DNA of 64,000 nt from Limisphaerales bacterium. GTDB taxonomy: Bacteria; Verrucomicrobiota; Verrucomicrobiia; Limisphaerales; JAJOIW01. Numbering within the stretch: the first letter of the stretch is position 1; every line of letters starts with the position of its first letter. The DNA is taken from positions 293,145 to 357,144 of the forward strand of contig CBFHOE010000003.1 of assembly GCA_965657355.1 (NCBI GenBank), written 5' to 3'. Shown piece by piece: positions 7,601-50,800 of this stretch. The translations under genes and the position numbers were made by a program. The notes under the pieces were generated by a model. The model made no database searches. It saw nothing but the letters and a program-made list of their open reading frames with translations, and had not been told where the DNA came from.

Positions 7601-8926
7601 TTAATTTTTGCCGGGCGTTTTAGAATGCGCTTGTTGTGGGAAGTCAAAGGTAAGCACCAGGGGGTCCGTTCCGGTATTTTCAATCTCGACACCGCCCTTA
7701 TTGAGCGCAGCTTGAGTAATGAATCCGATTTCGGGATAAATTTCACCGAGCTTCATATCCTGGTGGTACCGCACTGCAAGTTTACCAACACGGCCACTAC
7801 CGCCATTCGTGTGAAAGAGCGCAGGGCTTTCCGGACAGAAATTTGTTTTTGCCCCAGGTTCCACGATGAGGCGGAGAATGGAACACTTTTGGTCGCCAAG
7901 GAAGTCACCATAAATAATCCACCTTGCGTCCACTCCATCGCCCGTGAACTCTTCAGCTGAGATTGCCGGACGTGAATTTTTCATGACAAAATCCGGGTCT
8001 TGATTTGCTTCGAAATCAAAAGTATCAACGAGAAATTCCCAGTCTTCGTGACGGTCTTTTGGATAGTCCTCTTCTCTGCAGGCGTAAAAAGCATCAGCTG
8101 CTCCGATACTTCCATCTAGAGTAAGGTCTTCTGCAAGGAAGTGCTCGTCCATTGTCACGTGCAGCTCGTGAGTACAAAGGTCAGTCGGTGAGTGGAGCAC
8201 TCCATTAGGCATGACGAAGCCGTTATCAAGTTGCATCATTGTATGGGGAGACAAATGCCGGACTCCGTTATATTCACCTCGTGCGAAATTTTTCATGCAT
8301 GACAGGAACTGGTCTTTTGTCACAAATGGGTAGAGTCCCATTGCCGTGGTGTGGTAATGGGAAGGACTAACTCCTGGATTATCGTATGAATTGATGTCGT
8401 AAACCTCCCATTTGGCCCAATGAAGGTGGTGCGGGATCGGGTTTAGGTTATCAAACTTTTTAGACACAATCGGCCATGTAGGGTTGCCGAATAGGGATTT
8501 CGAAAACGCTGTCATTTTTTCACCAATCACAACTTCTGGTTTAGCCGCGATTAAGTTCTGGAGGGAGATAACTTGACCGCCTGGCGTGAGGACATGCGAT
8601 TCCCCTTCACGAAATGGTGCTTTATTTGTGCGCGTATCAATGACTCCCGTCACTATAGGAACCGTGCAACACATCCACAGTTCATCTAGCCCGGTTCCGT
8701 CCATGTAATCTGGATAATAAGATTTGGCATCGAGACGAATTCTTTTTCCCGGAGTGCAAAAGGTCCGGCCTGCATAACGATGTAAAAGTTGTAACACGCC
8801 ATCGTTTTCGTTCAGGCAATCATCGAGAATTGAATCTACCCCTGCGCCGGATCCATCGATCACGTCTTGTTGGGGATACTCATGTAGTTTGTCCGGCAGA
8901 ATTGACGTCGAAGCAGTCATGGTCAA
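7601..8926 (-). CDS. Hypothetical cytoplasmic protein (His-rich core; possibly a cupin-type sugar isomerase; function not supported)
   Basis: 441-aa ORF with no signal peptide. It contains a His cluster (IPHHLHWAKWE) and HELHVTMDEH. Only the coding call is well supported. Confidence 0.55.
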   Translation of the reverse strand: MTMTASTSILPDKLHEYPQQDVIDGSGAGVDSILDDCLNENDGVLQLLHRYAGRTFCTPGKRIRLDAKSYYPDYMDGTGLDELWMCCTVPIVTGVIDTRTNKAPFREGESHVLTPGGQVISLQNLIAAKPEVVIGEKMTAFSKSLFGNPTWPIVSKKFDNLNPIPHHLHWAKWEVYDINSYDNPGVSPSHYHTTAMGLYPFVTKDQFLSCMKNFARGEYNGVRHLSPHTMMQLDNGFVMPNGVLHSPTDLCTHELHVTMDEHFLAEDLTLDGSIGAADAFYACREEDYPKDRHEDWEFLVDTFDFEANQDPDFVMKNSRPAISAEEFTGDGVDARWIIYGDFLGDQKCSILRLIVEPGAKTNFCPESPALFHTNGGSGRVGKLAVRYHQDMKLGEIYPEIGFITQAALNKGGVEIENTGTDPLVLTFDFPQQAHSKTPGKN

Positions 8927-9255
8927 TAGGTTCTAATTTAGCTGTAGAATTTATGTTATTATCTGTATTTTAAATCACAATGAGGCAGGCCTAGCGCCTG
9001 TAAACTCAAACTCAAATTGGATTCTGACTTTTAAGAATGGGATTAGCAAGGTTGAATGGTGCCAATGCCATACTGCGGGATGCCCAGACTATCTCAATGG
9101 GCTATCAGAATTAAACCTTGATTGAGTCCAAGTCGCTTAGCTCCCATCCGCATGACCCCTACAGGGGTATCGAAACTGCGGTGTTAATCTCATTGCCGAC
9201 GGTAAATTTTTTTCGCGAGGTATTATCTTATTTATTATTTAATAAGGCCTGAGTT

Positions 9256-10887
9256 TTAGAATTTTTCCGCTGTCAAGCCTGGCCAATCGTCTGTCCTGAA
9301 AGGTGTCAATGGAAGCCCCTCTTTATTCTGGACGTTGCAAACGGGATTGTCTGCCCACCCATATCTAACGGCTACTGGGTTTGGAACTTTATCACTCCAA
9401 ACTTCTACAGTGGTATTATTAATGATTTTTGCATTAGCCCAGTGAAATTTTCTATCCTCGCCAGCAATAGCAAACCCCACAGGTGTTCTGAAGTCAAATG
9501 TGTCCAGGCCTCCACCGACGTAATCAAATGTCACAGTTGCCTTACCGCCTTTACTAGAAAACGATTTATAGACGGGACTTCGATAAACGATTTCATATCC
9601 GTAGTCTTTTGCTAAAGCCCAGCGAGCTAACCTTTTAGCGACGTTCTGTTTATCTTTGGGATGGATGTCATGAGCTTCACCCAGGTCTATGATAACGGCT
9701 TCACCTGTATTTGGTAGCTTGGACATTGTCATTGTTTGTGCTTCTCGAAGTTCTGCCCAATCGCTTTCCGCCGGTTCAGTTTTTTCATCTCTGAAATCTG
9801 CCAACTGGACCCAATAGAAAGGGAAATCACCTTGCCCCCATTCATCTCTCCAATTTTGGATCATTAGTGGAAACAGATCACGATACTGATAAGCTCGACT
9901 TGCATTGCTTTCACCCTGATACCAGATAGTCCCTTTGATTCCGTATCCAATAATGGGTCTTAGGACTCCGTTATAAAGATTTCCAGGACGATGCTGGTTA
10001 GTTAGCTGGTTTCTTGGGCGTCTTGGTTTGGCTGGAATTTTCTCACCTTTGATTCTTGCCTGAAAACTTTTTCTCTGCCAGTCCTCTAGTGACTTCTGGT
10101 AATTTTTCATGGCACTATTGAGTTTGGGGTCAGCTTCGGTTTTTGCCCATCTTTCTAAAAGTGGAGTAAATACGGATTTGTCTTTGAGAAGATCTCTGCG
10201 AACCCATGCCTCTGCCGAAGACCCTCCCCATGCATTGTCGATAAGTCCGATTGGCATGTCCAGAGTCTGGTGAAGTTGTCTCCCAAAAAAATAACCAACA
10301 GCCGAGAAATTCTTAACAGTCTCAGGTGTGCATTTTTCCCATTGGCCTTCGAAGTCATTTTGAGGAACCTGCGTGCCAACCTGCGGAATGCTTATGAGTC
10401 TAATATCAGGGTAATTGGCACTCAATGATTCCAGATCAGGATCGTTCGAAGCATTGATGGACCACTGCATATTAGATTGCCCGGAACAGATCCAGACTTC
10501 ACCAAACTTTACATCATTAATCTCTATGGAATTATTTACCCCTTCGATTCTGAGTCTGACCTCAGTTTTTGCTGGTAAAGGGTCTAATAAAACAACCCAC
10601 CTTCCATCAGGGCCAGTTTGAGTTTTATGAGATTGGATGATTCTTTCAGAAGAGGCATCGATTCTCGTTTGCGTCCGTTTTGGCGCGGCGCCAGTACTGA
10701 CAGTAACTGAAACCTCCTCCCCAGCCAAAGCCCATCCCCATACTGGATTTTCCTGATCTCTTTGGAGAACCATGTGATTCCCGAACAAGGAAGATACACT
10801 TACGGCGGCAGGTGAGATCACTGGGTTTGCGAGCAACACGATGAGCAAGCATCCCCAAAACACTGGTGTTTTGGTTAAGATTTTCAT
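9256..10887 (-). CDS. Sialate O-acetylesterase (SASA/DUF303 family carbohydrate esterase)
   Basis: A signal peptide is present. The catalytic block [13 protein letters not shown] (GQSNM), then [11 protein letters not shown] and IWYQGESN, are typical of 9-O-acetylesterases. Confidence 0.85.
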
Positions 10888-11268
10888 GGTATTAGATGTT
10901 TCAATTCTGCCCCTTCCTCATGACTGAGTCCATAAAAAACTATGGCTCTTAGTAAACCCTTTAATCAGGTTCATGGAAAAAAAGTTAAGCTAAAGAATTT
11001 TTTACTCTGCTCTGGTGTGGCTTTGAATGTAGAAGCTCCGGGTAAAATTTTTTATTTATCGATTATCCGAGTCATCCATTGATCTCAGCAGTCAACTCAG
11101 CGTACGAATCGTATACCCAAAAAATTAGATTCACACAAGTAGGCTATATTTTTTTGAGCGATTGAGATAACTAGTCAATGGACATCCTTGTCCCATTCGA
11201 TGGTTACTTATATTCGAACAAATGCATGGTGCTTTTATTTTCCATTTAGAATAAACAAACAATGTTGC

Positions 11269-12026: not shown

Positions 12027-12853
12027 TTTGCTTAGTTTTTAGTTTTTAGACGTTATAAGACAGCGTCCTAACCTCCATCAAGAATCCTCAAAAATCCTTC
12101 AATGTCAATAACGGTATATCGATATAAATATAGCAAAGCTGTTGTAAACTTTTAAATGGATTGACGTGTTAACATGGGCAAAGGAGACATTCCAAACATA
12201 GAGATAGTGCTCCATTATTAACACAAGCGGCCTCACATAATCACTTGCCCCATGTTTTTAAATGAGATTAGAAAATTATTTCTAAAAAAGTGACAGTTCG
12301 ATTAATTGATTTTTATCTTGGACTGGGCCACTAATGTGGGATCGGGAATGTGTGTCCTATGATATTATGAGTCTCTCGCAGAAACCGCCATCGAGGTCGC
12401 ATTTGAGTGGTCATATTTTTAATCTCATTACAAAAGATCGGGAAAGTCATTTTTGTCTGGCTCTCCAAATTGCATTTCCTGGCTTGCAATGAAAAGGAAG
12501 GCCCTACTTCTTGGTTTGGATCCTTCGCTTTTGAAAATCACAAAATGAAAAAATAGATTGATTTCATCTGATGCCCTCTCAAGAGAGAAAGATCGCCAAA
12601 TTTGCTTCCCTAAATATTAGACAGAAAAGCAGAAATTCTTAAATTTCAGACAAAACCTAAACGTTTGTTGAGGTTCTTACTTAACGTTTCTCATACTCTC
12701 CGTTGGTTGATATGAGTTTTGTAAAAAACAAAAATTTTATGTCTAGAATTTGTTTAACAAAAAAGTTGTACACGGATTTGCGATGTCGAAGAACAATTAT
12801 ACGGTGCTTTGGAAATCAATATCGATTCAAACCAATTGTTAATAACACCAAAA

Positions 12854-14482
12854 ATGAAATTCACAAAATATGTAGCGGCTTCAGTCTTGGCTCTCTTCAT
12901 TGCGATGGGTAGCGCTCAAGCCGAAAAGAAAAATATCGTCGAAACTGCAGTCGGAGCAGGGCAATTTAACACGCTCACCGCCGCACTAAAAGCAGGCGGT
13001 CTAGTGGAAGCACTTCAAGCAAAAGGACCTTTCACGGTTTTCGCTCCAACAGATAAGGCATTTGCAAAACTTCCTAAAGGGACTGTTGAATCCCTTCTGA
13101 AGCCCGAAAACAAGGCAAAACTAGTAGATATCCTGACTTACCACGTTGTCTCTGGTGAAGTCCCCAGCAAAGTCGCTGTGACGTTGACAGAAGGCAAGGC
13201 ACTCAACAAAAAATCTTTCAAGGTCAACAATACGAAAAATGGCCTCTACATCAATCGATCCAAAGTTGTCATGGCCGACATTGAATGTTCGAATGGCGTC
13301 ATTCATGTTATTGATTCCGTGCTTTTGCCACCTGCCGAAAAAGCTGCTGAGCAAAAGAACATAATTGAAACCGCTGTCGGTGCTGGTTCTTTCAAAACAC
13401 TCGCAGCAGCACTTAAGGCCGGTGGTCTCATCGAAGCCCTTCAGGCCAAGGGACCATTTACAGTATTTGCTCCCACGGACAAAGCATTTGCTAAGCTTCC
13501 TAAGGAAACTGTTGCTTCCCTCCTCAAACCCGAGAACAAAAAGAAACTTGTCGACATTCTTACATACCACGTTGTTAAGGGGGAAGTTCCAGCCAAGGTC
13601 GCTGTCACGCTCACTCAGGCAAAAGCTCTTAACAAAAAAACCTTTAAAATCAACAACACCAAAAAAGGCCTATACATCAACAAATCTAAAGTTGTAAAAG
13701 CTGATATTAACTGTTCAAACGGAATCATTCATGTCATTGATACTGTTTTACTACCACCAGCAGAGAAGAAATACCAAAAAGCTTCCAACCAGAAAGATAT
13801 CATCCAGACAGCAGTCGGCGCGGGTGCTTTCAAAACCCTGGCGGCAGCGCTAGAAGCTGGTGGTCTAGTAGAGGCCCTTCAAGCTGATGGTCCTTTCACT
13901 GTTTTCGCCCCAACAGATGATGCATTCGCCAAGTTGCCAAAAGGCACTGTTGAATCTCTCCTCAAGCCCGAGAACAAAGACAAACTTGTTGACATCCTGA
14001 CATACCATGTTGTTGCCGGCAAGGTTCCTAGCAAAGTTGCTGTGACCTTAACGAAAGCGAATGCTCTTAACAAAAAATCATTGGGTATCAAAAACACCGC
14101 CAATGGATTGTTCATTAACAAATCCAAAGTGATTAAAGCTGATATTGATTGCTCAAACGGAGTCATTCATGTCATTGATTCTGTTCTACTTCCACCAGCT
14201 GGAAAAAATTACGAAAAGGCTGAAAACGAAGATGTTAAGAAATTTCTATCTACAGCTATCAACCATGGAGTATCTCATTTTAATGTTGGTAACCATAAGA
14301 CTTGCGAAGCCATATATTCGATAGCTGCTCAAGCATTGGTCATGATGCCTGATTGTTCTGTTTCGCAAACTGACAAAAACAGAATGAAAATGGTTATTGA
14401 CCAAGCGTCACGATCACACGATAGCACCAAAGATTCCTGGGCTTTCAGGAATGCTTTTGATCAAATGCTAGTTTCTCAATAA
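12854..14482 (+). CDS. Secreted protein with three tandem fasciclin (FAS1) domains and a Cys-containing C-terminal domain
   Basis: The ATG at 12854 gives the signal peptide MKFTKYVAASVLALFIAMGSAQA. There are three copies of ...TAVGAG.F.TL.AAL.AGGL.EALQA.GPFTVFAPTD.AFAKLP...LTYHVV...NG.IHVID.VLLPP. Confidence 0.9.
   Translation: MKFTKYVAASVLALFIAMGSAQAEKKNIVETAVGAGQFNTLTAALKAGGLVEALQAKGPFTVFAPTDKAFAKLPKGTVESLLKPENKAKLVDILTYHVVSGEVPSKVAVTLTEGKALNKKSFKVNNTKNGLYINRSKVVMADIECSNGVIHVIDSVLLPPAEKAAEQKNIIETAVGAGSFKTLAAALKAGGLIEALQAKGPFTVFAPTDKAFAKLPKETVASLLKPENKKKLVDILTYHVVKGEVPAKVAVTLTQAKALNKKTFKINNTKKGLYINKSKVVKADINCSNGIIHVIDTVLLPPAEKKYQKASNQKDIIQTAVGAGAFKTLAAALEAGGLVEALQADGPFTVFAPTDDAFAKLPKGTVESLLKPENKDKLVDILTYHVVAGKVPSKVAVTLTKANALNKKSLGIKNTANGLFINKSKVIKADIDCSNGVIHVIDSVLLPPAGKNYEKAENEDVKKFLSTAINHGVSHFNVGNHKTCEAIYSIAAQALVMMPDCSVSQTDKNRMKMVIDQASRSHDSTKDSWAFRNAFDQMLVSQ
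12926..14204 (+). repeat. Three in-frame tandem ~420-440-bp FAS1-encoding repeats
   Basis: The repeat units begin at 12926, 13352 and 13790. Long identical peptide runs (GPFTVFAPTDKAFAKLPK, SLLKPENK, KLVDILTYHVV) are shared between units. Confidence 0.85.
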
Positions 14483-14519
14483 TCATTATTTGCGATTTAG
14501 TAATAATATAAACATAAAA

Positions 14520-16761: not shown

Positions 16762-17167
16762 GAATGGACCGGCCTTTGACTTTCAGCTTGAGCGGCTGCT
16801 GGATCAATAACCAAACCTTTGATTCGTTGGCCCAGCAAAGCGGGGAATCCAATCCAACCCGAGGAATTCTCCTCCAACTACTCGAGAGCTGAAACTGTGT
16901 TTTCGTTTATTTAGGTTATCCAGAGTCCCGTTTCACGCATCGCCGAGATTTTGCAATGTCTTCTCCTTCCGGTTTGAATCATTGTGGGTCCAACATATGG
17001 GATAACCCTTTAATGGAATCTTCCTTTGCGAATGTATCAGCCGTCGATAGAGTCATTGCAACGGGTGATACGATAGTTATCGCAGGAGCTACCCATATTA
17101 ATCTATAGGGCTCTTTTTATACATGCCCCTACCCCTGATTGCGGTAAGTCGAGCTCTATGCTTTCAT

Positions 17168-18229
17168 TTAATTTTTCGCGAAGCTGATCTCGGTGAATGG
17201 TATAATATGTTCGATACGTTGATTTCCTCGAATATCCCAGACTTCAGACATTAAATAAGGTTTGTTGTCGGAGAAATTGATGGTTATAAGCCCAAAATGG
17301 TTGTCCATAATCGGGCCTTCAATTCGATTTTTATTTGGTGTCGCAAATTTCCATGTCGATGACAAACCACTTGCTGTCATGTCATACAATGGGTAACAGC
17401 CCTTACTTTCCAATTTGGATATTTCTGCGTAGTGGACATCGCCGCTCAGAAAAACAACATGATTGGCTTGAGTCTTTTTTATGAGGTCAATCATTCGTTT
17501 TTGTTCATGTGGGAAATTTGCCCATGCTTCGTAACCATTGTACTCGATGCCAAATTGAGTGCCTGAAGCAATGATTCTAAAGTCTGCTGGTTTAAGCAGT
17601 TCGCGCTCGAGCCAGCTCCATTGTTTTTCCCCGAGAAGTGTCATTGAGGTGTCCGTGTGTGGGGAATAATCTAAGTGATAGAAAAAGCGCCGGTCTTTAT
17701 TTTTTTGATCTCCAGGTAAAAGGTTGTCCCGGAAGGTGCGCCCATCTAATAAGATGATTTGTATGGTATTCCCGGCGACCTCACGAAAAACTGAGTGGTA
17801 GATCCCTTCATGCTTATATCTTTCTGAATCCTCAGGTTCTTCAAAAAATTCCAGAAAAATTTCTTTGGAGGCTTCTTTTTTTGGGTAGTATTTCCCTGCA
17901 TCATTTTGACCATAATCGTGATCATCCCAGGTCGCTAAAATTTCAGTGTTTTCTTTGAGGTTTTTATACGAGTCTTTACTGCCCAGTAGTTGATATTTTT
18001 TCCGAAGGATATTCATGTCATTGGTGTCGCCATAGATATTATCACCAAGAAAAATAAACGCGTCCGGTTTATGGTTCACAACATGATTAAGAATTGGTAG
18101 TGGGTGATTCTGGCTTCCACACGATCCAAAGGCGATCTTAAAAATATGATTTGATGATGATTCATCACCTTCGATTACCCAAGGGCTAAAAAGGAGACAA
18201 AACGCCAAAATTTGTGCAGGGTATTTCAT
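17168..18229 (-). CDS. PhoD-like metallophosphatase (alkaline phosphatase D family)
   Basis: A signal peptide is present, along with the metallophosphoesterase motifs FLGDNIYGD, TWDDHDYG and LSGDVHYAE. Confidence 0.75.
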   Translation of the reverse strand: MKYPAQILAFCLLFSPWVIEGDESSSNHIFKIAFGSCGSQNHPLPILNHVVNHKPDAFIFLGDNIYGDTNDMNILRKKYQLLGSKDSYKNLKENTEILATWDDHDYGQNDAGKYYPKKEASKEIFLEFFEEPEDSERYKHEGIYHSVFREVAGNTIQIILLDGRTFRDNLLPGDQKNKDRRFFYHLDYSPHTDTSMTLLGEKQWSWLERELLKPADFRIIASGTQFGIEYNGYEAWANFPHEQKRMIDLIKKTQANHVVFLSGDVHYAEISKLESKGCYPLYDMTASGLSSTWKFATPNKNRIEGPIMDNHFGLITINFSDNKPYLMSEVWDIRGNQRIEHIIPFTEISFAKN

Positions 18230-19334
18230 AGGATTTAAGATTACCCAGGTTTCGCCTCAAATGCCAACCACTTCTAAAAATATAGTCCGGCGCGAAAGAG
18301 CTTTTATTTTTTGTGAAGAAGTCTAATAGGACAAGGTAGTATTACCAACGGGTAACGTTCCTGAAAACTTTCGACAGTGAGGAAGAATAATGACCAGATC
18401 TAAATGAAGAAGATCGTTTTAAAAACCAAACCATATCACACACAAAAACCTGGCTCATAATACGATAAAATTCCCGAAGTTCTCTCATTTATTTGCTTGA
18501 TCCTTGAAATCTGGACACAGTCAAAACGACACTGGATGAAAAACTTGCCCTTTGCTACCAGATCATAATGTTATCAGCTAGGCGTGGATTACTTAATGCG
18601 CGCGGAATACGAACTGGTTACACCCACTGGCTTGGTTCGGAGCTATCTAGGGAAGTTCGCTTCTTTATAGGTTTCGTTAGTAAGGAGGCAATCAATAATA
18701 ATAGCAATGTCGGACTGGTGCTAAAGCACTTTCTAAGAATTCAAACAGAGTTGACTAAACTGATCAGAAGGCATTTGTCTGAAGGAGAAAACGAGAAAGA
18801 ATTCGTTGAGGAGGTAAAACGGCTGGAGTAAGTTCACAACGTGACAAAAGAGGAAGATACGAAACTCCGCAGAGAATAATTCAAAGGTGACTATGAGCTT
18901 GCTGGTATTGAGCTTGTGTATTGGAGCAACATTTCTCTATAAAGTCGGGTTTTCCTAAAAAAGAAACTTCAAGGCAATGTAGCAGATTTTCATGAATACA
19001 ATACTTGGAATTGATTTAAAGCAGAACTCTATTAATCGCGACTAGTTTGCCTACCTGCAGCTGTTCTTTTGGCTATCCAAAAAGTCGCTAGGTCGGACTG
19101 GCTTCTTTAGTCTCATTGATTTCAGTAGAATTTATTACGTCCTCAAAAAATACACAATAGATCAGCTACATTGAGCGGGTAACAGATGAAAGTGAGAACC
19201 CGAAGGTCAATTCCTTCCCAGGATGCCACCTCGGCAAGCCTATTGATCGCTTAGGCATTAGGAGGTTTCACTCAAATAATACCCACCCTATCATAATTAT
19301 TTCTTTGTCCGAACGTCAAAAGACAGGCACGCCG

Positions 19335-20513
19335 TTAGGCGCTGCCCGCTCTGCCTTGTTCGGCATTCTTCTTTTTATTCTTATGGGTGCTCAAGGGTGC
19401 CGTTTGAGCTGTCCTTTTGTAATCTTTCCATGCTTCCATTTGAGGCAGCAAGTTTGGCAATCGTGGTTCCAACGGATAAAGGCGGTGGAAAACACCGGTG
19501 GACGAGCCGGAGATGGGCGGCACGATCCATGACCATTCGGCCTGTACTTCGTGGCCTTGAGATCGCTCGCTCTCACAGTGGGCGAGGAATTCGCGTGAAG
19601 CTTGGTGGTGGTCCACCATGCGCACACCTTCACGGGCGAAGGAATGCAATACGGCTTCGTTGAGCACGAGCAGGGCACGGTCCTTCCACAGGTTTCTGCC
19701 AAGCTGCAATCCGAGCCGCTCTGCCACTTCTGGAAGGAGGTTGTAGCGGTCGGCATCGCCGAGGTTGCGGGCACCGATCTCAGTTCCCATGTACCAACCG
19801 TTGAAGGGGGCGCAGGGAAAGACATCGTCTAGCGTGACCAGCATCATGTCTGTGATCGCCGGCACGGCGTGCCATCGCAACCCGAGTTTCGCGAACCAGG
19901 GATATTCAGGGTGTTCAAGTTCGACCTCCAATACCACCTCGCGCGGCAATTCTCGGACGACAACCCGTCCGTCCACCTCGATGACCAAAGGCAGCAAATC
20001 GAAGCGTCCGGGGTCAACCGGTGGCGACCAGCCGAGTGAGCGGACCCGCTCGGTGAAGGCCACGTTCATGGGGTCGCCTAACACCGAGCCGTCCGGGCGG
20101 CGGTATCCGGCGTAGCGGATCAGCTGGTGGTTCCATATCCGAATGCTCGGATGCCCTTCCCGCCACTTGGCGAAAACCGTTTGCGTTGGAATGATGCGGC
20201 CACCGTTGGTGGCTACGCGCAGGTGTTCGACACAGGCCTCGAATACTTCGTCGGCATTATCCAGCGAGCGGGCGTCGACGACCTGCAGCGACCGCCAGTG
20301 CAGACGTCCGATGCAACGCACTGATTCGCGCCAGGCTAGGCGTGCGGCATCGGCCAGCTTCATCCCGCCGGAGCCGTCCGACATGCTTTGAACTAGCTTC
20401 CAAGCCTCGTCAGCCCGCCAGCGACGCGCATGATCGAAAACACCGGCGGCGTAAGGGCACTCACCGCCAGATGTCGCTGCGCCGGTCGGGTCTTTATCGG
20501 AGATCGGATCCAT
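19335..20513 (-). CDS. nos: Bacterial nitric-oxide synthase, oxygenase domain only
   Basis: The motifs WRESVRCIGRLHW (haem-thiolate Cys loop), IRIWNHQLIRYAGY, PFNGWYMGTEIGARN (substrate Glu) and WSWIVPPISGS are collinear with Bacillus subtilis NOS as I recall it. There is no reductase domain. Confidence 0.9.
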   Translation of the reverse strand: MDPISDKDPTGAATSGGECPYAAGVFDHARRWRADEAWKLVQSMSDGSGGMKLADAARLAWRESVRCIGRLHWRSLQVVDARSLDNADEVFEACVEHLRVATNGGRIIPTQTVFAKWREGHPSIRIWNHQLIRYAGYRRPDGSVLGDPMNVAFTERVRSLGWSPPVDPGRFDLLPLVIEVDGRVVVRELPREVVLEVELEHPEYPWFAKLGLRWHAVPAITDMMLVTLDDVFPCAPFNGWYMGTEIGARNLGDADRYNLLPEVAERLGLQLGRNLWKDRALLVLNEAVLHSFAREGVRMVDHHQASREFLAHCESERSQGHEVQAEWSWIVPPISGSSTGVFHRLYPLEPRLPNLLPQMEAWKDYKRTAQTAPLSTHKNKKKNAEQGRAGSA

Positions 20514-20864
20514 GAACCTTCAGGGATAGACCGGCAATAAGCGATGTAATGTACTGGTAGGAGATTGCTTTGAATCCTGCGGCCATCGCTTCACCAGAGG
20601 CCAGAGGTTGAAAAGTGTTCTGACTTAGTTTCCATCGGGCTGTTTCTTCGCCGAACGGTTTTATTATGCCGATAGCGATAATTTTGGGAATCGCTGGCGA
20701 TTTTCCGTTTTCCATGTGGTAAATTATCCAAAAAAAGGTAAAGAAGCAAATTGAGACCATTTTGGTTGGGTTTAATTTTAATAAAAAATTATCGTTATCG
20801 TTCATGAATCATAATTTTTGTTATTGGTTGCACTTGCTCGGAGATTAGGAGGAACTTAAGCCAT

Positions 20865-21422
20865 TTAAATCTTAACTATCTCAGCCACCTTCCTGGAGTT
20901 TGAATTCAGCAAATGGACATAAGTTCTCATAGCCAGTGTGACGCAATTCTCGTGACCAAGCCAACGTGATGCGGTTTTGATATCAACACGGCTCTCAATG
21001 CAACGTGTGGCGAACAAATGCCTGAAATCATGCAGCGTGAGACTCTTTCGCCCCATATCTTTAAAGGCCAATTATATTACCTTATTGAAGGTGACAATTG
21101 GTATTATTGCATCCTCCTCCCCAATGGGGAATCAACGATCTGAAAGTTCTGTTCGCAGTTGCTTGTAAATTTCTTCAACCCCACCAATGAATAGGACGTG
21201 CCTTTCTTGTATTTCGTGCTCACGCCCTTTGGCCGTTTTGATATAGGTCTCGCGATTATCACAATCGATATCGCCCCAAGTGATCGCTTTCGGTTCCAAC
21301 AATCGTGTTCCAGTTCGGGAAACAATTTCCAATGCCCAAATACCAATCCAAATAATGAGGCTTTGGATAGCATTGACTCTGCCGATGGAGTAGGACTCAA
21401 AAAGTTCAGCCAAGTATGCCAC
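20865..21422 (-). pseudogene. Tyrosine recombinase / phage-type integrase remnant (N-terminally truncated, two in-frame stops)
   Basis: One reading frame contains SRTGTRLLEPKAITWGDID (Arg-I box), then TGA (21132-21134), FPIGEEDAIIPIVTFNKVI, TAA (21072-21074), and LTLHDFRHLFAT...WLGH...RTYVHL (HxxR, GH and the catalytic Tyr). About 185 of the expected 350 or more codons remain. Confidence 0.75.
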
Positions 21423-21469
21423 ATACTCCCGTTTAGTGATGTCCTCGACCTCGACCTGAGATAGCGATA

Positions 21470-21961
21470 TATGAAATTGAGCTTCAGAAATTAGGGATCA
21501 TAACGGAGCTTTTTCAAAACCAAATCTTACCGGAGTTTGATTTATCAATTGCTGGAAACCAAAGTGTAGGAGGATCTCTTTTTAAAGACACAGGTGAATT
21601 TGAACTCAAACTAGGCCTGGAATTTAGTTTGCCTCTGCAAAGAAATAAGACCAAAGGCGCCATTGCATCCAATGCTGCAAAAGTTAATATGGAATTAGCT
21701 TCCGAAAATAGTGATTTGGCCATCGCTTTGAGAGAAATTGAATACGATAGATTTAGAATTGGTGCCACTAATTTATTATCTCCTCAGATTCGAGAGCAAA
21801 CTTCTCTCAAAGCCAGGCAAGAATGGATTAAGTCACAATACGATTACTATTTGGCTCTTGTGGACTTAATCATTGCTAGTGCAGTAAATTTCAGGCAATA
21901 CAAGGATTCACAGAAGGGGGTTTTCGACATAGCTTCCCAATGGGATAATATAGCCAATTGA
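21470..21961 (+). pseudogene. 3' remnant of a TolC-family outer-membrane efflux protein gene
   Basis: The frame is open from 21440 with no credible start. The translation ...LSIAGNQSVGGSLFKDTGEFELKLGLEFSLPLQRNKTKGAI...EIEYDRFRIGATNLL...QEWIKSQYDYYLALVDL is the last ~165 aa of a ~450-aa OEP/TolC repeat protein. Confidence 0.65.
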
Positions 21962-22247
21962 GTTTTTACTTCCCAAGACTCTGCTCATTTCATGTCAGCC
22001 AAGAGCCCTGTCTTTTGTTCGAAGAGAACGGTTAAATTGTTTTCCTTGTTTCTTGCATCGCAGGTAGTAAATTTAACTCTCGTCATGGCGGTAAAGATTC
22101 TCACCAACACGGCTAAAGAGTGGTTTCTTCTCAGATGAGCTAGGCCTGCTGAGTGTTGTTTTGGGACTACCCATTATCCCATCATAGGGATGCAACTCTG
22201 GAATTGTGTGAGTGTGAGAAATTGAAATTGCCAACAGCCCGTAGGCT

Positions 22248-22323
22248 GTCCCTGTAGTTCAAATGGATAGAACGACGCTCTCCTAAAGCGAAGATCTGGG
22301 TTCAATTCCCGGCGGGGGCACCA
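22248..22323 (+). tRNA. tRNA-Arg: tRNA-Arg (anticodon CCT)
   Basis: Cloverleaf folded by hand. The acceptor GTCCCTG pairs with CGGGGGC (two G-U pairs). The D arm is GTTC/GAAC. The anticodon arm is ACGCT/AGCGA with loop CT-CCT-AA. The T arm is CTGGG-TTCAATT-CCCGG. The discriminator is A and CCA is encoded. Total length is 76 nt. Confidence 0.9.
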
Positions 22324-22373
22324 TCTCTTCTTTCTTGCCCGTTGCTTTAATGGGATTTAAATTTTCTTATCTC

Positions 22374-24284
22374 ATGTGTAAGCAACGAAAAAAAAGTGGC
22401 AAAAATCATCAAAATAAGCGTAAGGCAACGTGCGGCTTGGTTTGTTTGATTACTTTTCTATTTCTTGCCTGCACCCCTGAAAGCCAAGATGGAGTCGAAA
22501 AATCTGGAGGAGAGAAAATTGAGTCAGCCGTTGCTGTGGATGCTCAGGACCTAATCGATGAGATAGTGACTGCCCCTGGCCTTGGTAACGAGAATATCAC
22601 TTATGTCGCTCCTCTTGCTGATGCATACAGCCGAATCGATCCCACGCGAGACGGGTGGGAAAGTGAGGCTTTCAGCGAAGCCGCCTCCAAGCAATTGAAA
22701 AATCTGGCAAAGGATCTGACAAATCCAAAAAAGGTCAAAACAGGACAATTTTACAATATTTTTGGATCTAGCCCATCTCTCAAGGTTCTACCTGAAGATG
22801 TAAAACCATTTTATTCCGACGATGTTTTCCAAATCAATCGTGGCGATCTTGAGCAGCTGAAGGAATTCAATGATCCAAAGCAGGCCATCAAGGCTCTGAT
22901 GGCACCAATATTGCAGTCTGAAATCATTCAGACAGGAGTTAAACTTTATAAAATTGAGCCGCGGACTGAGGGCGTCTTCACGCGTGTGATATTCCATGCG
23001 ACTGGGGAGTCAGAATCTGGTCGCATGCAAATTAACACAGAGTTTGATTGCTTGTGGGAGCCTAACGTCAAAAAGCCAATGCTCGAAAAAATGACATTGT
23101 CGTCCTATGAAGAGGCCATTCGAAAGAGTAAAGATGGGGATCCTTTGTTCTCTGATGTTACCGAAGCTGTTTTTGATGGAAATGATGTTTATATAAAGCA
23201 CTTGATGCGAAGTACGGACCATTGGAGATCCAGAATACCCAGAATATATGGATTGGACGTTGTGGCCAATCACGGCATAGCACTCGGAGATGTCAATGGT
23301 GATGGATTGGATGACCTCTACCTTTGTCAACAAGGTGGCTTGCCTAACCGATTATTTATTCAAAAACCAGATGGGGCGCTGGCAGATTTTACTGAAGAAA
23401 GTGAAACAGGCTGGTTGGATTATTGCTCCAGTTCTCTCATCATAGACGTCGATAATGATGGGCATAGAGATCTGGTTATCGCTCAGGATTTTAATCTCAT
23501 TTTTATGCGGAACAATGGAGAGGCCAAGTTTGAGCAAATTTTAAGAATTCCAGCCCATGCCCAAACTTTCTCTATAACTGCCGCTGACTATGATGAGGAC
23601 GGGGATCTAGATATTTTTGCTTGTGGATATAACCCATCAGGAGATCGGATACGTACGGGGGCACTTGGAGAACCCATGCCTTATCATGATGCACAAAACG
23701 GGGGTAGAAACATTTTTCTCGAAAACCAAGGGGATTGGGCATTTGTCGAGAAAACGTCCGAAGTCGGTTTCGATCAAAATAATAATAGATTTAGTTTTGC
23801 GGCGACATGGGTTGATTTTGACAATGACAATGATCTAGATCTTTATGTTGCCAATGACTACGGCCGAAATAATCTTTACAGAAATATTGGAGGTAAATTT
23901 CAGGACGCAGCCGCTGAGTTGGGTGTCGAAGATATGTCCGCAGGAATGTCAACCAATTGGGCTGATTTTAATCGTGACGGTGCCTTAGACCTTTATGTAA
24001 GTAATATGTTTTCGGCAGCGGGAAACAGAATTACTTTCCAGCGTCAATTTAAGCCGGGTACCTCCACTTCTCTAAAGGCACAATACCAGCGCCATGCAAG
24101 GGGGAACAGTCTCTTTCAGGGAAGTCCAGACGGAGGCCCGTTTCTGGATATTAGTGAATCCCAGGGAGTTGCCATAGGAAGATGGGCCTGGGGTTCCAGA
24201 TTCACCGACATCAATGGCGATGGATGGGAAGACATTGTCGTCGCCAATGGTTTCATATCCACCGAAGACACAGGTGATTTGTGA
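22374..24284 (+). CDS. FG-GAP/VCBS-repeat (CRTAC1-like) lipoprotein, N-terminal part of a frame that continues past an in-frame TGA
   Basis: The ATG at 22374 gives a lipoprotein signal (LITFLFLAC). Repeated xDxNGDGxxDL(Y/V) FG-GAP motifs are present (GDVNGDGLDDLYL, DVDNDGHRDLVI, DYDEDGDLDIF, DFDNDNDLDLYV, DFNRDGALDLYV, DINGDGWEDIVV). The frame stops at TGA 24282-24284. Confidence 0.8.
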   Translation: MCKQRKKSGKNHQNKRKATCGLVCLITFLFLACTPESQDGVEKSGGEKIESAVAVDAQDLIDEIVTAPGLGNENITYVAPLADAYSRIDPTRDGWESEAFSEAASKQLKNLAKDLTNPKKVKTGQFYNIFGSSPSLKVLPEDVKPFYSDDVFQINRGDLEQLKEFNDPKQAIKALMAPILQSEIIQTGVKLYKIEPRTEGVFTRVIFHATGESESGRMQINTEFDCLWEPNVKKPMLEKMTLSSYEEAIRKSKDGDPLFSDVTEAVFDGNDVYIKHLMRSTDHWRSRIPRIYGLDVVANHGIALGDVNGDGLDDLYLCQQGGLPNRLFIQKPDGALADFTEESETGWLDYCSSSLIIDVDNDGHRDLVIAQDFNLIFMRNNGEAKFEQILRIPAHAQTFSITAADYDEDGDLDIFACGYNPSGDRIRTGALGEPMPYHDAQNGGRNIFLENQGDWAFVEKTSEVGFDQNNNRFSFAATWVDFDNDNDLDLYVANDYGRNNLYRNIGGKFQDAAAELGVEDMSAGMSTNWADFNRDGALDLYVSNMFSAAGNRITFQRQFKPGTSTSLKAQYQRHARGNSLFQGSPDGGPFLDISESQGVAIGRWAWGSRFTDINGDGWEDIVVANGFISTEDTGDL

Positions 24285-24291
24285 AGTGTCT

Positions 24292-24315
24292 ATTGGCGGC
24301 AGGTCGTGTCGCAAT
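24292..24315 (+). promoter_or_regulatory. SECIS-like stem-loop 7 nt downstream of the in-frame TGA
   Basis: Pairs 24292-24294 with 24313-24315, G24295 is bulged, and 24296-24301 pair with 24307-24312 (one G-U pair). The apical loop is GGUCG. The loop GGU lies at +21 to +23 counting the U of UGA as +1. Confidence 0.35.
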
Positions 24316-26252
24316 CACCAGTTGGAAAAATTACCCCAGAAAATACTTTGAAATATCGACAAGGCTGGATGGCCCTTAACCGATTGCTTCATGAGGACCG
24401 TTCATTCAGTGGCAATGAAAGAAATTGTGCTTTTTTAAATTGCGGGGGAGGAAGTTTTGCTGACGTCTCGTCGGTTACTGGATTTGACTTTACAGACGAT
24501 GCCAGGAGTTTGGTTGTTTCCGATTGGGATTTTGACGGAGACCTTGATATATGGACCACAGCAAGGACGGCCCCTCGACTGCGGCTTCTTCTAAACGACT
24601 CTAAATCAAACTCGGATTGGATTTCTATCAAGTTAGTTGGAGATAGAAAAAAGATAAATCTGGATGCCATTGGAGCGAGAGCCGAGCTCTATATTTCCGG
24701 GCAACTTATCCCATTCATCAAAACAGTTCATGCAGGTGATGCCTTCTTATCTCAAAATTCAAGCTGGCTACATTTTGCATTTCCCGAAGGATCCCAAGTT
24801 GAAAAATTGGTTGTGCGCTGGCCGGGAGGAATTTTAGAAACCTTTGACACGGGGCTGACGCAAGGAAATAAGTATTTGGTTTCTCCAGGTGGGCGACCTT
24901 TGGAATGGAAACCTCCAATAAACCGCAAGTCTTTAATTCCATCCCAACCCAAATTAGCTAAACCCGATCCTACAGCTCGCATTGTTGTTTCTGGGCGCAT
25001 GCCATTGCCTCCAATATACGTTGTGGAGAATGGAACGGAATCTGAATACCCAGTAACTCAACTTAAAGGGCCTCTTCTCATTAATCTATGGGCCAGCTGG
25101 TGCGCTCCATGCAGGGTAGAACTCAAATCATGGGTGGGGCATTCAGAGGATTTTGAACAGGCTGGCTTACGATTACTGGCTCTCAACTCAGAAATAGCTT
25201 CTAAATCTGCAGCTGATAAGTTTTTAAAATCAATAAATTTTGGTTTTGAATCTCGTGATACCTCACCAAAAACGGTTCGCAACCTCGATTTATTTCAAAG
25301 ATCGATGCTGGATAGATGGACGGACCTGCCTGTTCCGAGTAGTTTCCTCTTAGACAAGTCGGGAAGGGTTGCCGTCATATACAAAGGCCCAGTTGAAGCA
25401 AAACAGATCCTTTCGGATTTGGAGCTTTTGGGAATGTCTCCAACTGAAGTCAGGGATGCTTCAGTCCCATTTGCTGGTCGATGGAGTTTTCCTCCCGCGA
25501 GCGGTAATCCGCTTTTAGTCAATTCGCAATTTGTCTCTGCAAATGAATACAACGAAGGCGTTGTTTATCTAAAACGATATGCCACGTTAGCTCAGGATAC
25601 TGGTCAACTTTCTCAAAAGGGACTCGGAGATGTCCATTATGTGATAGGCGTTATCGAAAGGAATAATGGAAATTTGCAAGGAGCCGAGGAGACCCTAGTT
25701 AAAGCGCAGCAATTTTCGCCAGATGATTTTCGTATACAGCGTGATTTGGCAGAGCTCTTTATCGAAACTCGGCAATTCGGAAATGCCTCTGAGCAAGTTT
25801 CCAAAATGATGTCTCATGCACCCCAGAACACAGAAGCTAAAAGACTCCAGGGACAAGTCTTAATGGGAAAAGCTAATCAGCTGAACGAGGCAGGCGAAGC
25901 AGCAAAAGCAATCCCACTATACCGGTCTGCTCTGCGTGCAAATAACAAGCTTTTGTCTGCCGCAAATAATCTTTCTCTTATTCTCTCTACATCTGCTGAC
26001 CCAGATTTGCGAAACCCTGAAGAAGCTAAAGCTCTTGGTCAAGTCCTTTGCCGATTAACTAAAAACAAAAATCCTGAGTATTTGGAGACATATGCTTTTG
26101 CTCACGCCAGCGCTGGAGATTTTCAGAGCGCGTTGAAATTCTCAAAGGCGGCTCGCAAATTATACGAGGCTGCCAATAATCAATCCAAGGTCTCCGAGAT
26201 AGATGCACGCATTAGAGATTATGAGGAGACTAAATCTCAGCCAAAGCCGTGA
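24306..26252 (+). CDS. ASPIC/UnbV domain + TlpA-like thioredoxin (WCAPC) + TPR region; same frame as 22374-24284
   Basis: GNERNCAFLN...DWDFDGDLDIW...GARAELYISG...AGDAFLSQNSSWLHFAF...LVVRWPGG is an ASPIC/UnbV domain. It is followed by LINLWASWCAPCRVEL (redoxin CxxC) and C-terminal TPR-like helices. There is no ATG or RBS of its own. Codons 24285-24305 (SVYWRQV) are open and in frame with the upstream ORF. Confidence 0.75.
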   Translation: MSQSPVGKITPENTLKYRQGWMALNRLLHEDRSFSGNERNCAFLNCGGGSFADVSSVTGFDFTDDARSLVVSDWDFDGDLDIWTTARTAPRLRLLLNDSKSNSDWISIKLVGDRKKINLDAIGARAELYISGQLIPFIKTVHAGDAFLSQNSSWLHFAFPEGSQVEKLVVRWPGGILETFDTGLTQGNKYLVSPGGRPLEWKPPINRKSLIPSQPKLAKPDPTARIVVSGRMPLPPIYVVENGTESEYPVTQLKGPLLINLWASWCAPCRVELKSWVGHSEDFEQAGLRLLALNSEIASKSAADKFLKSINFGFESRDTSPKTVRNLDLFQRSMLDRWTDLPVPSSFLLDKSGRVAVIYKGPVEAKQILSDLELLGMSPTEVRDASVPFAGRWSFPPASGNPLLVNSQFVSANEYNEGVVYLKRYATLAQDTGQLSQKGLGDVHYVIGVIERNNGNLQGAEETLVKAQQFSPDDFRIQRDLAELFIETRQFGNASEQVSKMMSHAPQNTEAKRLQGQVLMGKANQLNEAGEAAKAIPLYRSALRANNKLLSAANNLSLILSTSADPDLRNPEEAKALGQVLCRLTKNKNPEYLETYAFAHASAGDFQSALKFSKAARKLYEAANNQSKVSEIDARIRDYEETKSQPKP

Positions 26253-49762: not shown

Positions 49763-50800
49763 ATGAAAAAACTAAGCGTAGGCATTATTGGGTATGGTTG
49801 GGCTGCTGGGGCTCACATAGAAGCAATTAATAATTCAGGCCTTGCGGAAGTCCGTTCTATTTTCTCTTCCCGCGAATTAGATTCTGACGAGGTCTCCCAA
49901 AAGCATGGCCCTGGTTTGCAAGTTCATACAGATCTAAAGGAATTCCTTATGGATGAAACTTTAGACGTCGTTTCAATAACCAGTCATCCATGGAAACACA
50001 GGGAGCAAGCAGAATTAGCCGCTCTTGCGGGTAAGCATATAATTCTTGAAAAGCCAATGTCACTTTCTTTGGAGGATTGCCAATCCTTGTCAAAAGTTAT
50101 TCGGGAAACTGGAGTTGGATTCTGTTTATGTTTTGAGTGCCGTTTTTCAAGCCAGTTTAAAGCGACTAAATCTATTATTGACCAAGGTTTATTAGGGGAT
50201 ATCCATTATGGTGAAGTTGATTATTATCATGGGATTGGCCCATGGTACGGGCAATATTCTTGGAATGTAAAAAAAGATGGGGGCTGCAGTTCGCTACTTT
50301 CAGCTGGGTGTCATGCCCTTGACGCACTTCTTTACTGCATGGGGGGAGAAGTGGAGACAGTGTCTAGCTATTCTACAAAATCTCGAAATGACGATTTTTC
50401 CAAATATGAATACGACACAACCTCCGTCACCATTTTAAAATTCACCGACGGAAGAGTTGGAAAGACTTCTTCTGTAATTGATTGTATTCAGCCGTATTAT
50501 TTTCATACTCATTTAGTTGGCAGTCAGGGGAGTCTTTTGGACAATAAAATCCATACAGAAAAAATCCACGGACTTAATAAAAATAAATGGGGGCATCTCA
50601 ACTTCGGGCTAGTGGACTCCGGTGACGTCGCTGATCATCCTTATCAAAGTCAGTTTACCATTTTTTTTCAAAAAATTCTCGCAGGTGAGCCCATGGTCGA
50701 GACAGGTCTTGATGGTGCCATGAAAACGCATAATGTGATTTTTGCTGCGGATCTCTCAGCCGAAGAAGGAAAGCCGATTTCCATTCAGAGTTTAGTTTGA
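49763..50800 (+). CDS. Gfo/Idh/MocA-family NAD(P)-dependent oxidoreductase
   Basis: KLSVGIIGYGWAAGAHIEAI is a Rossmann motif, and ILEKPMSLSLEDC is the EKP motif. Confidence 0.85.
   Translation: MKKLSVGIIGYGWAAGAHIEAINNSGLAEVRSIFSSRELDSDEVSQKHGPGLQVHTDLKEFLMDETLDVVSITSHPWKHREQAELAALAGKHIILEKPMSLSLEDCQSLSKVIRETGVGFCLCFECRFSSQFKATKSIIDQGLLGDIHYGEVDYYHGIGPWYGQYSWNVKKDGGCSSLLSAGCHALDALLYCMGGEVETVSSYSTKSRNDDFSKYEYDTTSVTILKFTDGRVGKTSSVIDCIQPYYFHTHLVGSQGSLLDNKIHTEKIHGLNKNKWGHLNFGLVDSGDVADHPYQSQFTIFFQKILAGEPMVETGLDGAMKTHNVIFAADLSAEEGKPISIQSLV

Follow-up and report, generated by a model that had tools for sequence, protein, structure and literature searches.

A GC-rich nitric oxide synthase gene as a probable solitary integron cassette in a Limisphaerales genome

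The NOS locus

We analysed a 64-kb stretch of contig CBFHOE010000003.1 from a Limisphaerales bacterium (assembly GCA_965657355.1, forward strand; here called the window, with positions counted from its first letter), in which an intact gene for a nitric oxide synthase (NOS) oxygenase stands on a patch of markedly raised G+C content that is most probably an integron gene cassette. In minus-strand order the locus comprises an FG-GAP gene, tRNA-Arg(CCT), ~830 bp of non-coding DNA, a tyrosine recombinase pseudogene, 209 bp of AT-rich DNA, the putative cassette, ~1.1 kb in which there is no convincing gene, and a PhoD gene (Table 1).

Table 1. Coordinates of the features at the NOS locus
Feature	Position in window	Strand	Details
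NOS oxygenase coding sequence	19335..20513	-	392 aa, ATG start, PF02898
NOS integron gene cassette (probable)	19314..20655	-	1342 bp, ~59% G+C; TTCGGCG... to ...TTTTGACG
attC, 57 nt (predicted)	19308..19364	-	R'' GCCGAAC 19364-19358; R' GTTCGGA 19314-19308; crossover 19314/19313
Cassette leader, 142 nt	20514..20655	-	~90% identical across cassette copies
Promoter-like site TTCCCA-16-CATAAT	20663..20690	-	Host DNA, ends 7 nt before cassette; 9/12 positions match
Decayed tyrosine recombinase	20865..21422	-	Catalytic domain only, one frame, two in-frame stops; PF00589 on both fragments
Lineage-specific interval, PhoD to tRNA-Arg	18216..22219	.	~4 kb; NOS is the only intact gene
tRNA-Arg(CCT)	22248..22323	+	Edge of variable interval; also adjoins FG-GAP gene in sister species L058

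The NOS gene and its product

The NOS open reading frame (ORF) matched the Pfam family PF02898 with an E-value of 3.4e-124 (414.9 bits against a cutoff of 22.7; profile positions 51–362 of 362). Its best matches among solved structures were the Geobacillus NOS, gsNOS (2flq, E = 2.9e-97), and the oxygenase domains of inducible NOS, iNOS (~1e-96). A preliminary description of this DNA, made from the sequence without database searches, had named an intact NOS oxygenase with four motifs and no reductase. This was borne out, and the motifs were located at residues 66 (RCIGRLHW), 128 (NHQLIRYAGY), 237–250 (FNGWYMGTEIGARN) and 327 (WSWIVPP). The predicted catalytic and binding residues are C67 (the haem thiolate), W61, W240, E245 (in GTEIGARN), R248 and W327/W329 (in WSWIVPP), and between them they cover the haem-thiolate cysteine, the substrate-binding glutamate, the haem-stacking tryptophan and the pterin-binding arginine and tryptophan. 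All of these key residues fall in columns that are at least 97% conserved among 121 aligned homologues and align with their gsNOS and iNOS equivalents; on proper alignment, both the catalytic Cys (C67) and the catalytic Glu (E245) were retained.

No fused reductase domain is present in the ORF, which stops 29 aa past the oxygenase domain. The protein also has no calmodulin site and no N-terminal zinc hook (CxxxxC), C19 being the sole cysteine ahead of the haem cysteine. The haem-pocket Val/Ile switch is of the bacterial type (Ile220), with PAITDM aligned to PIISDM in gsNOS and to PAVANM in iNOS. The ORF is thus predicted to be a complete bacterial-type, reductase-less NOS oxygenase.

In this it resembles the known bacterial enzymes (gsNOS, bsNOS of Bacillus subtilis, saNOS of Staphylococcus, the Deinococcus enzyme and TxtD of Streptomyces), which consist of a single oxygenase domain of ~360–390 aa with no reductase and no zinc hook, possess the haem Cys, substrate Glu and pterin Arg/Trp, and have Ile where mammalian NOS has Val. 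The window protein is only ~50% identical to Firmicutes NOS, however. Its own clade is verrucomicrobial and is marked by a conserved Gly-Gly-x-Cys-Pro motif near the N-terminus and by a C-terminal tail rich in Lys and Asn. It scores equally against the oxygenase domain of mammalian iNOS and against gsNOS; the catalytic core aligns end to end with that of iNOS (3e7g, 1nsi; E ~1e-96), and the two share an ‘EAWK’ segment, which in animals precedes the calmodulin linker. Unlike mammalian iNOS, it is without the zinc-binding hook, calmodulin site and reductase domain, and has Ile rather than Val at the switch.

Between the window gene and other close cassette copies the dN/dS ratio was 0.09–0.20, which points to purifying selection on the NOS gene. 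The preliminary description had also mentioned spurious ORFs in the other frames, and six such ORFs of 65–144 aa do overlap the gene. The 103-aa ORF at 20494–20805, which lies over the NOS start, was likewise rejected as spurious: its frame is closed by a stop in other copies and it has no Pfam match.

Upstream of the catalytic core, the N-terminus carries the Gly-Gly-x-Cys-Pro motif (GGECPY, residues 16–21), with the cysteine present in at least 85% of the 121 homologues. The motif is not the mammalian CxxxxC zinc site and resembles a Cys-Pro haem-regulatory motif.

G+C contrast and soundness of the assembly

The NOS gene has a G+C content of 60.1% (68% at third codon positions) versus 42.7% for the remainder of the window, in which the highest other 1179-bp stretch reaches 48.3%. 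The sharply GC-rich patch of the preliminary description was therefore real (z = 7.8 for the gene in a sliding G+C check), and the hand counts on which it had been based were exact: 38/60 at 19921–19980, against 13/60 at 20761–20820 and 21/60 at 50041–50100. At finer scale the G+C content is at least 56% over ~19425–20550, then falls through 53% and 49% to 39% by ~20625–20774, with 35–46% on either side. The steps coincide with the boundaries of the putative cassette, with 59.0% inside and 39.8% and 40.9% outside.

Such a step could also be produced by an assembly chimera, in which a NOS fragment from a co-occurring high-GC genome had been joined to the contig. In favour of this, many metagenome contigs break in the 3′ part of the gene (19509–19595), so the gene behaves as a repeat in assembly graphs. 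The same NOS protein was nevertheless recovered, unchanged, from five independent metagenome assemblies (TARA, other ENA and Logan), whose DNA is 99.7–99.97% identical, and both cassette junctions are spanned in three of the five (L001, L003 and L005). Of eight further contigs on the PhoD side, seven reach the NOS gene or attC over the same 3′ junction, and the eighth (L044) ends before it. The window copy also carries 45 private substitutions that are absent from every other copy. We therefore regard a chimera as scarcely credible.

Six of the eight PhoD-side contigs break within the NOS gene. These PhoD-bearing contigs (L037–L042), from six metagenomes, all end in the 3′ region of NOS at window positions 19509–19595. 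Probably the cassette is common to several co-occurring genomes and disrupts the assembly graphs. In practice, the breaks caution that metagenome-assembled genomes (MAGs) under-represent such cassettes.

Limits of the cassette and its attC site

When window positions 17000–24500 were compared by blastn with the loci of the closest NOS homologues, the sole shared unit was 19305–20657, which is the gene with ~144 nt upstream and ~30 nt downstream. The same ends were found in L022, L011, L012, L013, L014 and L020. Copies start at G|TTCGGCGG after unrelated DNA, in ~9 distinct 5′ contexts. At the other end, copies of the window type finish with ...TTTTGACG|TT and then diverge into six 3′ contexts (TTCGGAC, TTCGAC, TTGTGC, TTCGCT, TTCACA and TTGACC). 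One copy, in L016, has lost both ends. In the window the limits are thus placed at 20656|20655 (G|TTCGGC) and 19314|19313 (...GACG|TT).

A textbook integron attC site has a GTTRRRY-like core and a complementary RYYYAAC-like inverse core, and measures 57–141 nt from end to end. At the 3′ end of the NOS unit the sequence reads GCCGAAC-AAGGCAGAGCGGGCAGCGCC-TAAC-GGCGTGCCTGTCTTTTGAC-GTTCGGA, with the NOS stop codon in the apical loop (TAAC). The first six bases of the cassette, with the G before them, read GTTCGGC, whose reverse complement is precisely the inverse core GCCGAAC, so that circularization of the cassette would restore a perfect GCCGAAC/GTTCGGC pair. A restored pair of inverse core and core is, as far as can be read from the DNA, the signature of an integron attC and a G|TT crossover. 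Both boxes depart from the textbook consensus at the fourth base, and they do so in a compensating manner.

The site is predicted to fold into an imperfect hairpin with an R-box stem and an inner stem and with bulged bases on the R''/L'' arm (z = −2.4 to −2.6 for the window site; −1.9 to −3.4 for the hairpin folds overall). Over six copies, the inner helix contains 13 pairs, five of them with compensatory double changes, and 94.9% of the cells are paired, as against 31–43% in slid-partner controls; on the R'' arm, bulges occur in alignment columns 18 and 24. AAC/GTT is the one constant part of the outer box; variability elsewhere in it is expected because the bases past G|TT belong to the downstream DNA.

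We scanned both strands of the window (128 kb of strand) for complementary NNNNAAC...GTTNNNN boxes lying 50–150 nt apart within a stable fold that pairs them, and 19308–19364 was the only match. No second attC or cassette array was detected in the window, and relaxed settings yielded nothing convincing nearby. We also considered whether the hairpin that follows the stop is simply a terminator; it has a terminator-like score, but the R boxes, the G|TT ends and the integron contexts described below explain more, and this reading was rejected.

The C-terminal tail of the protein (KDYKRTAQTAPLSTHKNKKKNAEQGRAGSA) is Lys/Asn-rich, and this accounts for the G+C content of only 48.9% in 19335–19424. 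The final nine codons and the stop lie in the arm and loop of attC, and the cassette junction is 20 bp past the stop. As the tail is conserved together with the cassette, in L022 and in other copies, the earlier suggestion that it might be a junction product can be discarded. What that description had missed is the mechanism, an integron cassette with attC and G|TT ends. Taken together, these features make it very likely that the GC-rich patch is an integron gene cassette bearing a bacterial NOS.

Leader and transcription

The leader contains a 14-codon upstream ORF (uORF; 20635–20591, METKSEHFSTSGLW and a stop) with GAAG/GGAG ahead of it. This uORF is homologous to the true N-terminus of NOS in short-leader variants of the cassette (L015, L017, L018 and L019). 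In the short-leader form NOS begins at the first ATG (METNSRPP...KDP...). In the long-leader form found in the window there are ~97 extra nt, the first ATG opens the uORF, and NOS starts from an internal ATG. The leader and 3′-end variants have been recombined between copies, L014 combining a long 5′ form with a variant 3′ end and L015 showing the reverse.

A search of the leader and flanks against Rfam (E ≤ 1) returned tRNA-Arg only. A structured leader RNA was considered and rejected, as the RNAalifold fold was weak, with a covariation penalty and double changes in just 3 of 44 pairs. The cassette itself is probably promoterless and transcribed from upstream host DNA, where the promoter-like site of Table 1 lies; read-through from the recombinase pseudogene is a possible alternative source of NOS transcription. 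A regulatory role specific to the cassette is conceivable both for the conserved leader with its uORF and for the Cys-Pro motif at the N-terminus of the protein.

The same cassette in other genomes

At least 10 further species of Verrucomicrobiota, belonging to several orders, have copies of the cassette, with ~88–92% identity at the DNA level and 84–91% at the protein level. The species-representative genomes that bear them are labelled Verrucomicrobiales, Akkermansiaceae, Opitutae/Opitutales, Coraliomargaritaceae and Limisphaerales, and the 90% protein cluster of NOS has 143 member sequences.

In two of these lineages the cassette lies in an integron. The 87.5-kb contig L022, from a MAG labelled Akkermansiaceae, carries an intI gene at 7885–9195 on the minus strand (TIGR02249, 335 bits against a cutoff of 265), divergent from a first cassette that starts with G|TTCGGC near 9405 and has a 97-aa ORF. 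The attC of this first cassette (9738–9864, 127 nt, GCCGAAC...GTTCGGC) directly abuts the NOS cassette, whose own attC is at 11150–11206, with further small ORFs beyond. The 166-kb contig L015, from a MAG labelled Opitutae, and its near-twin L048 have an intI (328.5 bits) whose product shares only 38–43% identity with the IntI of L022. Next to it come a two-ORF cassette that ends in ...GAC|GTTCAGC and then the NOS cassette. In both lineages, then, an array adjoining a bona fide integron integrase has the predicted NOS cassette in second place. Elsewhere no integrase was found near NOS in L014, L016, L017, L019 and L020 (10 kb upstream) or in L045 (8 kb), the downstream flank being shorter in L017 and L020.

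The two ORFs of the first L015 cassette (9363–9650 and 9643–9909; 95 and 88 aa) overlap in a toxin–antitoxin-like layout and have no NCBIfam match. A conserved insertion of ~270 bp in the C-terminal tail of NOS was seen in L014 (11134–11430), L017 (11128–11430) and L018 (2078–2380), and also in L019 and L049. It truncates NOS at ...LNTP, and a site of the same attC family (GCCGAACAAGACAG...) is found farther downstream in L017 and L018; the insert may be a small mobile element.

The G+C content of the NOS gene is 60–62% irrespective of that of the host flank (49–61%), and it equals its surroundings only in genomes of ~58–61% G+C (L011/L045, L008 and L029), which implies a donor pool of such composition. 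On this compositional evidence, the donor would be a ~60% G+C cassette pool circulating within Verrucomicrobiota. The window's host belongs to the same phylum: its SerA protein shows 65–66% identity and its PhoD ~70% identity to the nearest named Verrucomicrobiae, and the window is rich in PSCyt/PSD1/DUF1501, sulfatase and GH32 genes. As the host is itself a verrucomicrobium, the NOS transfer would have taken place within the phylum.

If NOS were instead native and vertically inherited, its high G+C content would have to come from biased gene conversion or selection acting on this gene. Both its presence in every recovered contig of this population that reaches the locus and the purifying selection on it would fit. 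A vertical history is difficult to reconcile with the divergence, since the 88–92% DNA identity across orders and classes (dS of only 0.20–0.36 relative to the copies that MAGs labelled Akkermansiaceae, Opitutae and Limisphaerales carry) contrasts with ~65% identity between host housekeeping proteins and those of the nearest named Verrucomicrobiae. Nor would it account for the high G+C and homology that the non-coding leader and attC share with the gene, or for the absence of NOS from the syntenic locus of the sister species. We consider vertical inheritance extremely improbable.

The insertion site and the sister species

The comparison of synteny was made with a sister species, L058 (PhoD 82% identical; 42.7% G+C). 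At the same locus this genome has the order FG-GAP–tRNA-Arg–CotH–PhoD and no NOS, and blastn of L058 and L057 against the window gave no homology within 18216–22219. Thus NOS was gained after the split of the two lineages, and the tRNA-Arg–PhoD interval is a variable spot, a hotspot of gene turnover. Among the eight PhoD-side contigs we did not find an empty-site (NOS-free) variant from the same population. The CotH-family gene of L058 (2592–4283, 563 aa) is located where the window has the recombinase remnant and the NOS cassette.

Over 1352 bp the window copy has 45 private substitutions, of which 28 are G/C-to-A/T and 12 the opposite. This bias indicates that amelioration towards A/T has begun, and ‘recent’ can only mean after the split from the sister species. 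The preliminary description had proposed a recent foreign acquisition from a high-GC donor. Its horizontal origin and higher G+C source stand; the donor, by contrast, would belong to the host's own phylum, and the private substitutions, together with the occurrence of the gene in all recovered metagenome contigs that extend to it, qualify the word ‘recent’.

The decay of neighbouring genes that had been proposed was confirmed in the tyrosine recombinase pseudogene with its two in-frame stops. Its N-terminal domain is gone, and 209 bp separate its end from the cassette start, which lies downstream of it on the same strand. This allows an alternative in which NOS arrived on another element, as the cargo of a tRNA-Arg integrative island (18216–22219) brought in by the now-decayed recombinase, the rest of the island having decayed. 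The tRNA-Arg at the edge of the interval and the absence of the whole interval from the sister species, where CotH stands instead, are both in keeping with this. The homology to other NOS copies and the G+C step, however, end exactly at G|TT, and the remaining interval has a host-like G+C content of 40–41%. In addition, no tRNA-derived direct repeats flank the interval (17900–22500 searched), which lies on the 5′ side of the tRNA rather than at its 3′ end; on that side, ~830 bp lie between the tRNA and the remnant. An island is also compatible with a cassette inserting into a pre-existing islet, so that it competes solely on the order of events. As the means by which NOS itself came, it is unlikely.

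The recombinase also raised the possibility that the locus is the wreck of a complete ‘inverted’ integron, with an integrase co-directional with the cassettes, in which intI has decayed and every cassette except NOS has been lost. The best NCBIfam match of the remnant's C-terminal fragment is indeed the ‘integron integrase’ model TIGR02249 (E = 1.3e-8), and the gap from the fragment to the cassette start is 209 bp and holds an imperfect inverted repeat. The match scores only 34.5 bits against the cutoff of 265, however, with Xer models nearly equal. The distance from the box I Arg to HxxR is ~92 aa in the remnant as against ~131 aa in IntI, and the remnant lacks, despite an unbroken frame, the IntI-specific segment of ~40 aa. 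Identity to the L022 IntI is 40% over 45 aa only, tblastn of two real IntI proteins against the window gave nothing at 1e-5, and the window has a single attC. The domain spacing and the scores rule out the remnant as a decayed integron integrase, and an inverted integron is correspondingly very unlikely as the origin of the locus.

The inverted repeat consists of two 16-nt arms (20670–20685 and 20785–20800) that are 94% complementary and separated by 99 nt. It lies in AT-rich host DNA at a distance of 14 nt from the 5′ crossover and fails the attC scan. It could be a hairpin that aided targeting, or the relic of an older low-GC attC. Between PhoD and the cassette, within the lineage-specific interval, several metagenome annotations place a gene on an 87-aa ORF (18568–18831, plus strand). 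Neither Pfam nor NCBIfam gave a match to it, and it is doubtful whether it is coding.

Insertion as a solitary cassette

With no intI and no second attC in the 64 kb, the window copy is classed from its sequence as a predicted solitary cassette, or SALIN (‘single attC lacking integron-integrase’), and not as a complete integron. Experiments have shown that integrases place cassettes at ‘attG’ sites in the genome, and genomes commonly contain solitary cassettes (bioRxiv 10.1101/2022.09.11.507474). Overall, the locus is very probably explained by a mobile integron cassette with a stand-alone NOS, inserted on its own into a low-GC chromosome.

In the sequence of events that we propose, an integron integrase, encoded elsewhere in the genome or supplied transiently, would excise the cassette from a ~60% G+C verrucomicrobial integron. 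Recombination of the folded attC with a G|TT would then insert it at a non-integron site in the variable tRNA-Arg–PhoD interval, for which the reconstructed target is ...ATAATAAAACCG|TTCGGACAAAGAAA.... The outcome would be a solitary cassette, kept by selection and drifting to A/T. We lean towards direct insertion by IntI at this site, as against arrival on or into the neighbouring recombinase islet.

Several points weigh against this account. Because the 64-kb window has no integron integrase or attI, the insertion step is one that we infer, and the recombinase pseudogene next to the cassette leaves room for a different vehicle. The attC scanner was home-made rather than IntegronFinder and is noisy in high-GC DNA. 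The covariation comes from six sequences with two main haplotypes, so that the five double changes may represent few events. Promoter-like sites in the region do not exceed the number expected by chance, which makes the site upstream of the cassette a weak lead. The taxonomic labels of MAGs can err for mobile DNA, yet the contigs concerned are 20–460 kb long and have distinct flanks.

The NOS cassette agrees with integron cassettes and SALINs as described (bioRxiv 10.1101/2022.09.11.507474) in having one promoterless ORF with an attC, complementary R''/R' boxes, an imperfect hairpin and a G|TT. It also resembles a SALIN in standing alone in the window, with no intI or second attC, while the same unit occurs in intI arrays elsewhere. 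It differs from textbook cassettes in its core, GTTCGGC rather than GTTRRRY with the compensating inverse core GCCGAAC. Further differences from the usual cassettes are its cargo, a haem enzyme making a signalling or toxic gas, and its 142-nt, uORF-containing leader, which is long. It is hosted by marine Verrucomicrobiota rather than by Proteobacteria. With tRNA-linked islands the locus shares a variable interval beside a tRNA, a tyrosine recombinase remnant and a foreign gene, but it has no tRNA-derived repeats, lies on the 5′ side of the tRNA and has its foreign DNA bounded by attC-type crossovers.

Function and significance

In a passage of PMC7658456 that cites Gusarov et al. (2008), bacterial NOS is described as using non-dedicated, promiscuous cellular reductases. 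The window enzyme would likewise make nitric oxide (NO) from arginine with non-dedicated host reductases and host pterin, as other bacterial NOS do. It is therefore to be expected that no reductase or pterin gene stands next to NOS, and the same independence makes the enzyme well suited to a one-gene cassette. The preliminary description had been right that no such gene is adjacent, and this is normal for bacterial NOS rather than a peculiarity of the locus. Candidate roles are protection against oxidative or antibiotic stress, support of NO-to-nitrite respiration, and signalling to algae.

NOS genes have been seen in verrucomicrobial MAGs, without comment on their mobility (PMC5673642). In a literature search that was not exhaustive, we came across no earlier description of NOS as the cargo of an integron cassette. 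Both the enzyme and the mobile system are known, and what is new is their combination and the host group.

Bacterial NOS is patchily scattered across phyla, and its movement has so far been inferred from trees. Here the vehicle of transfer can be read to the base: it occurs in two unrelated integrons and, in several genomes, as solitary insertions, and integrons are seen to operate in Verrucomicrobiota. Environmental integron cargo consists mostly of genes of unknown function, toxin–antitoxin pairs and resistance genes, to which a haem enzyme making a reactive signalling gas is now added. With the NOS-free locus of the sister species for comparison, the window offers a natural and unusually clean example of the SALIN/attG route.

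It is possible, and we suggest it tentatively, that NOS circulates as a plug-and-play cassette among marine, bloom-associated Verrucomicrobiota, moving between unrelated integrons and solitary chromosomal insertions. In that case integron recombination would offer a concrete explanation of why bacterial NOS is so patchily distributed, and NO production would be a tradable trait in these communities, serving for example in stress or antibiotic protection, NO signalling or antagonism to algae. The NOS cassette is a tractable test system, both for excision by IntI and for NO production in a heterologous host.

Elsewhere in the window, a fasciclin-domain region (12726–14491, with the ORF at 12809–14482) contains tandemly repeated domains, which give several offset blastn self-matches of ~72–75% identity when the window is compared with relatives.

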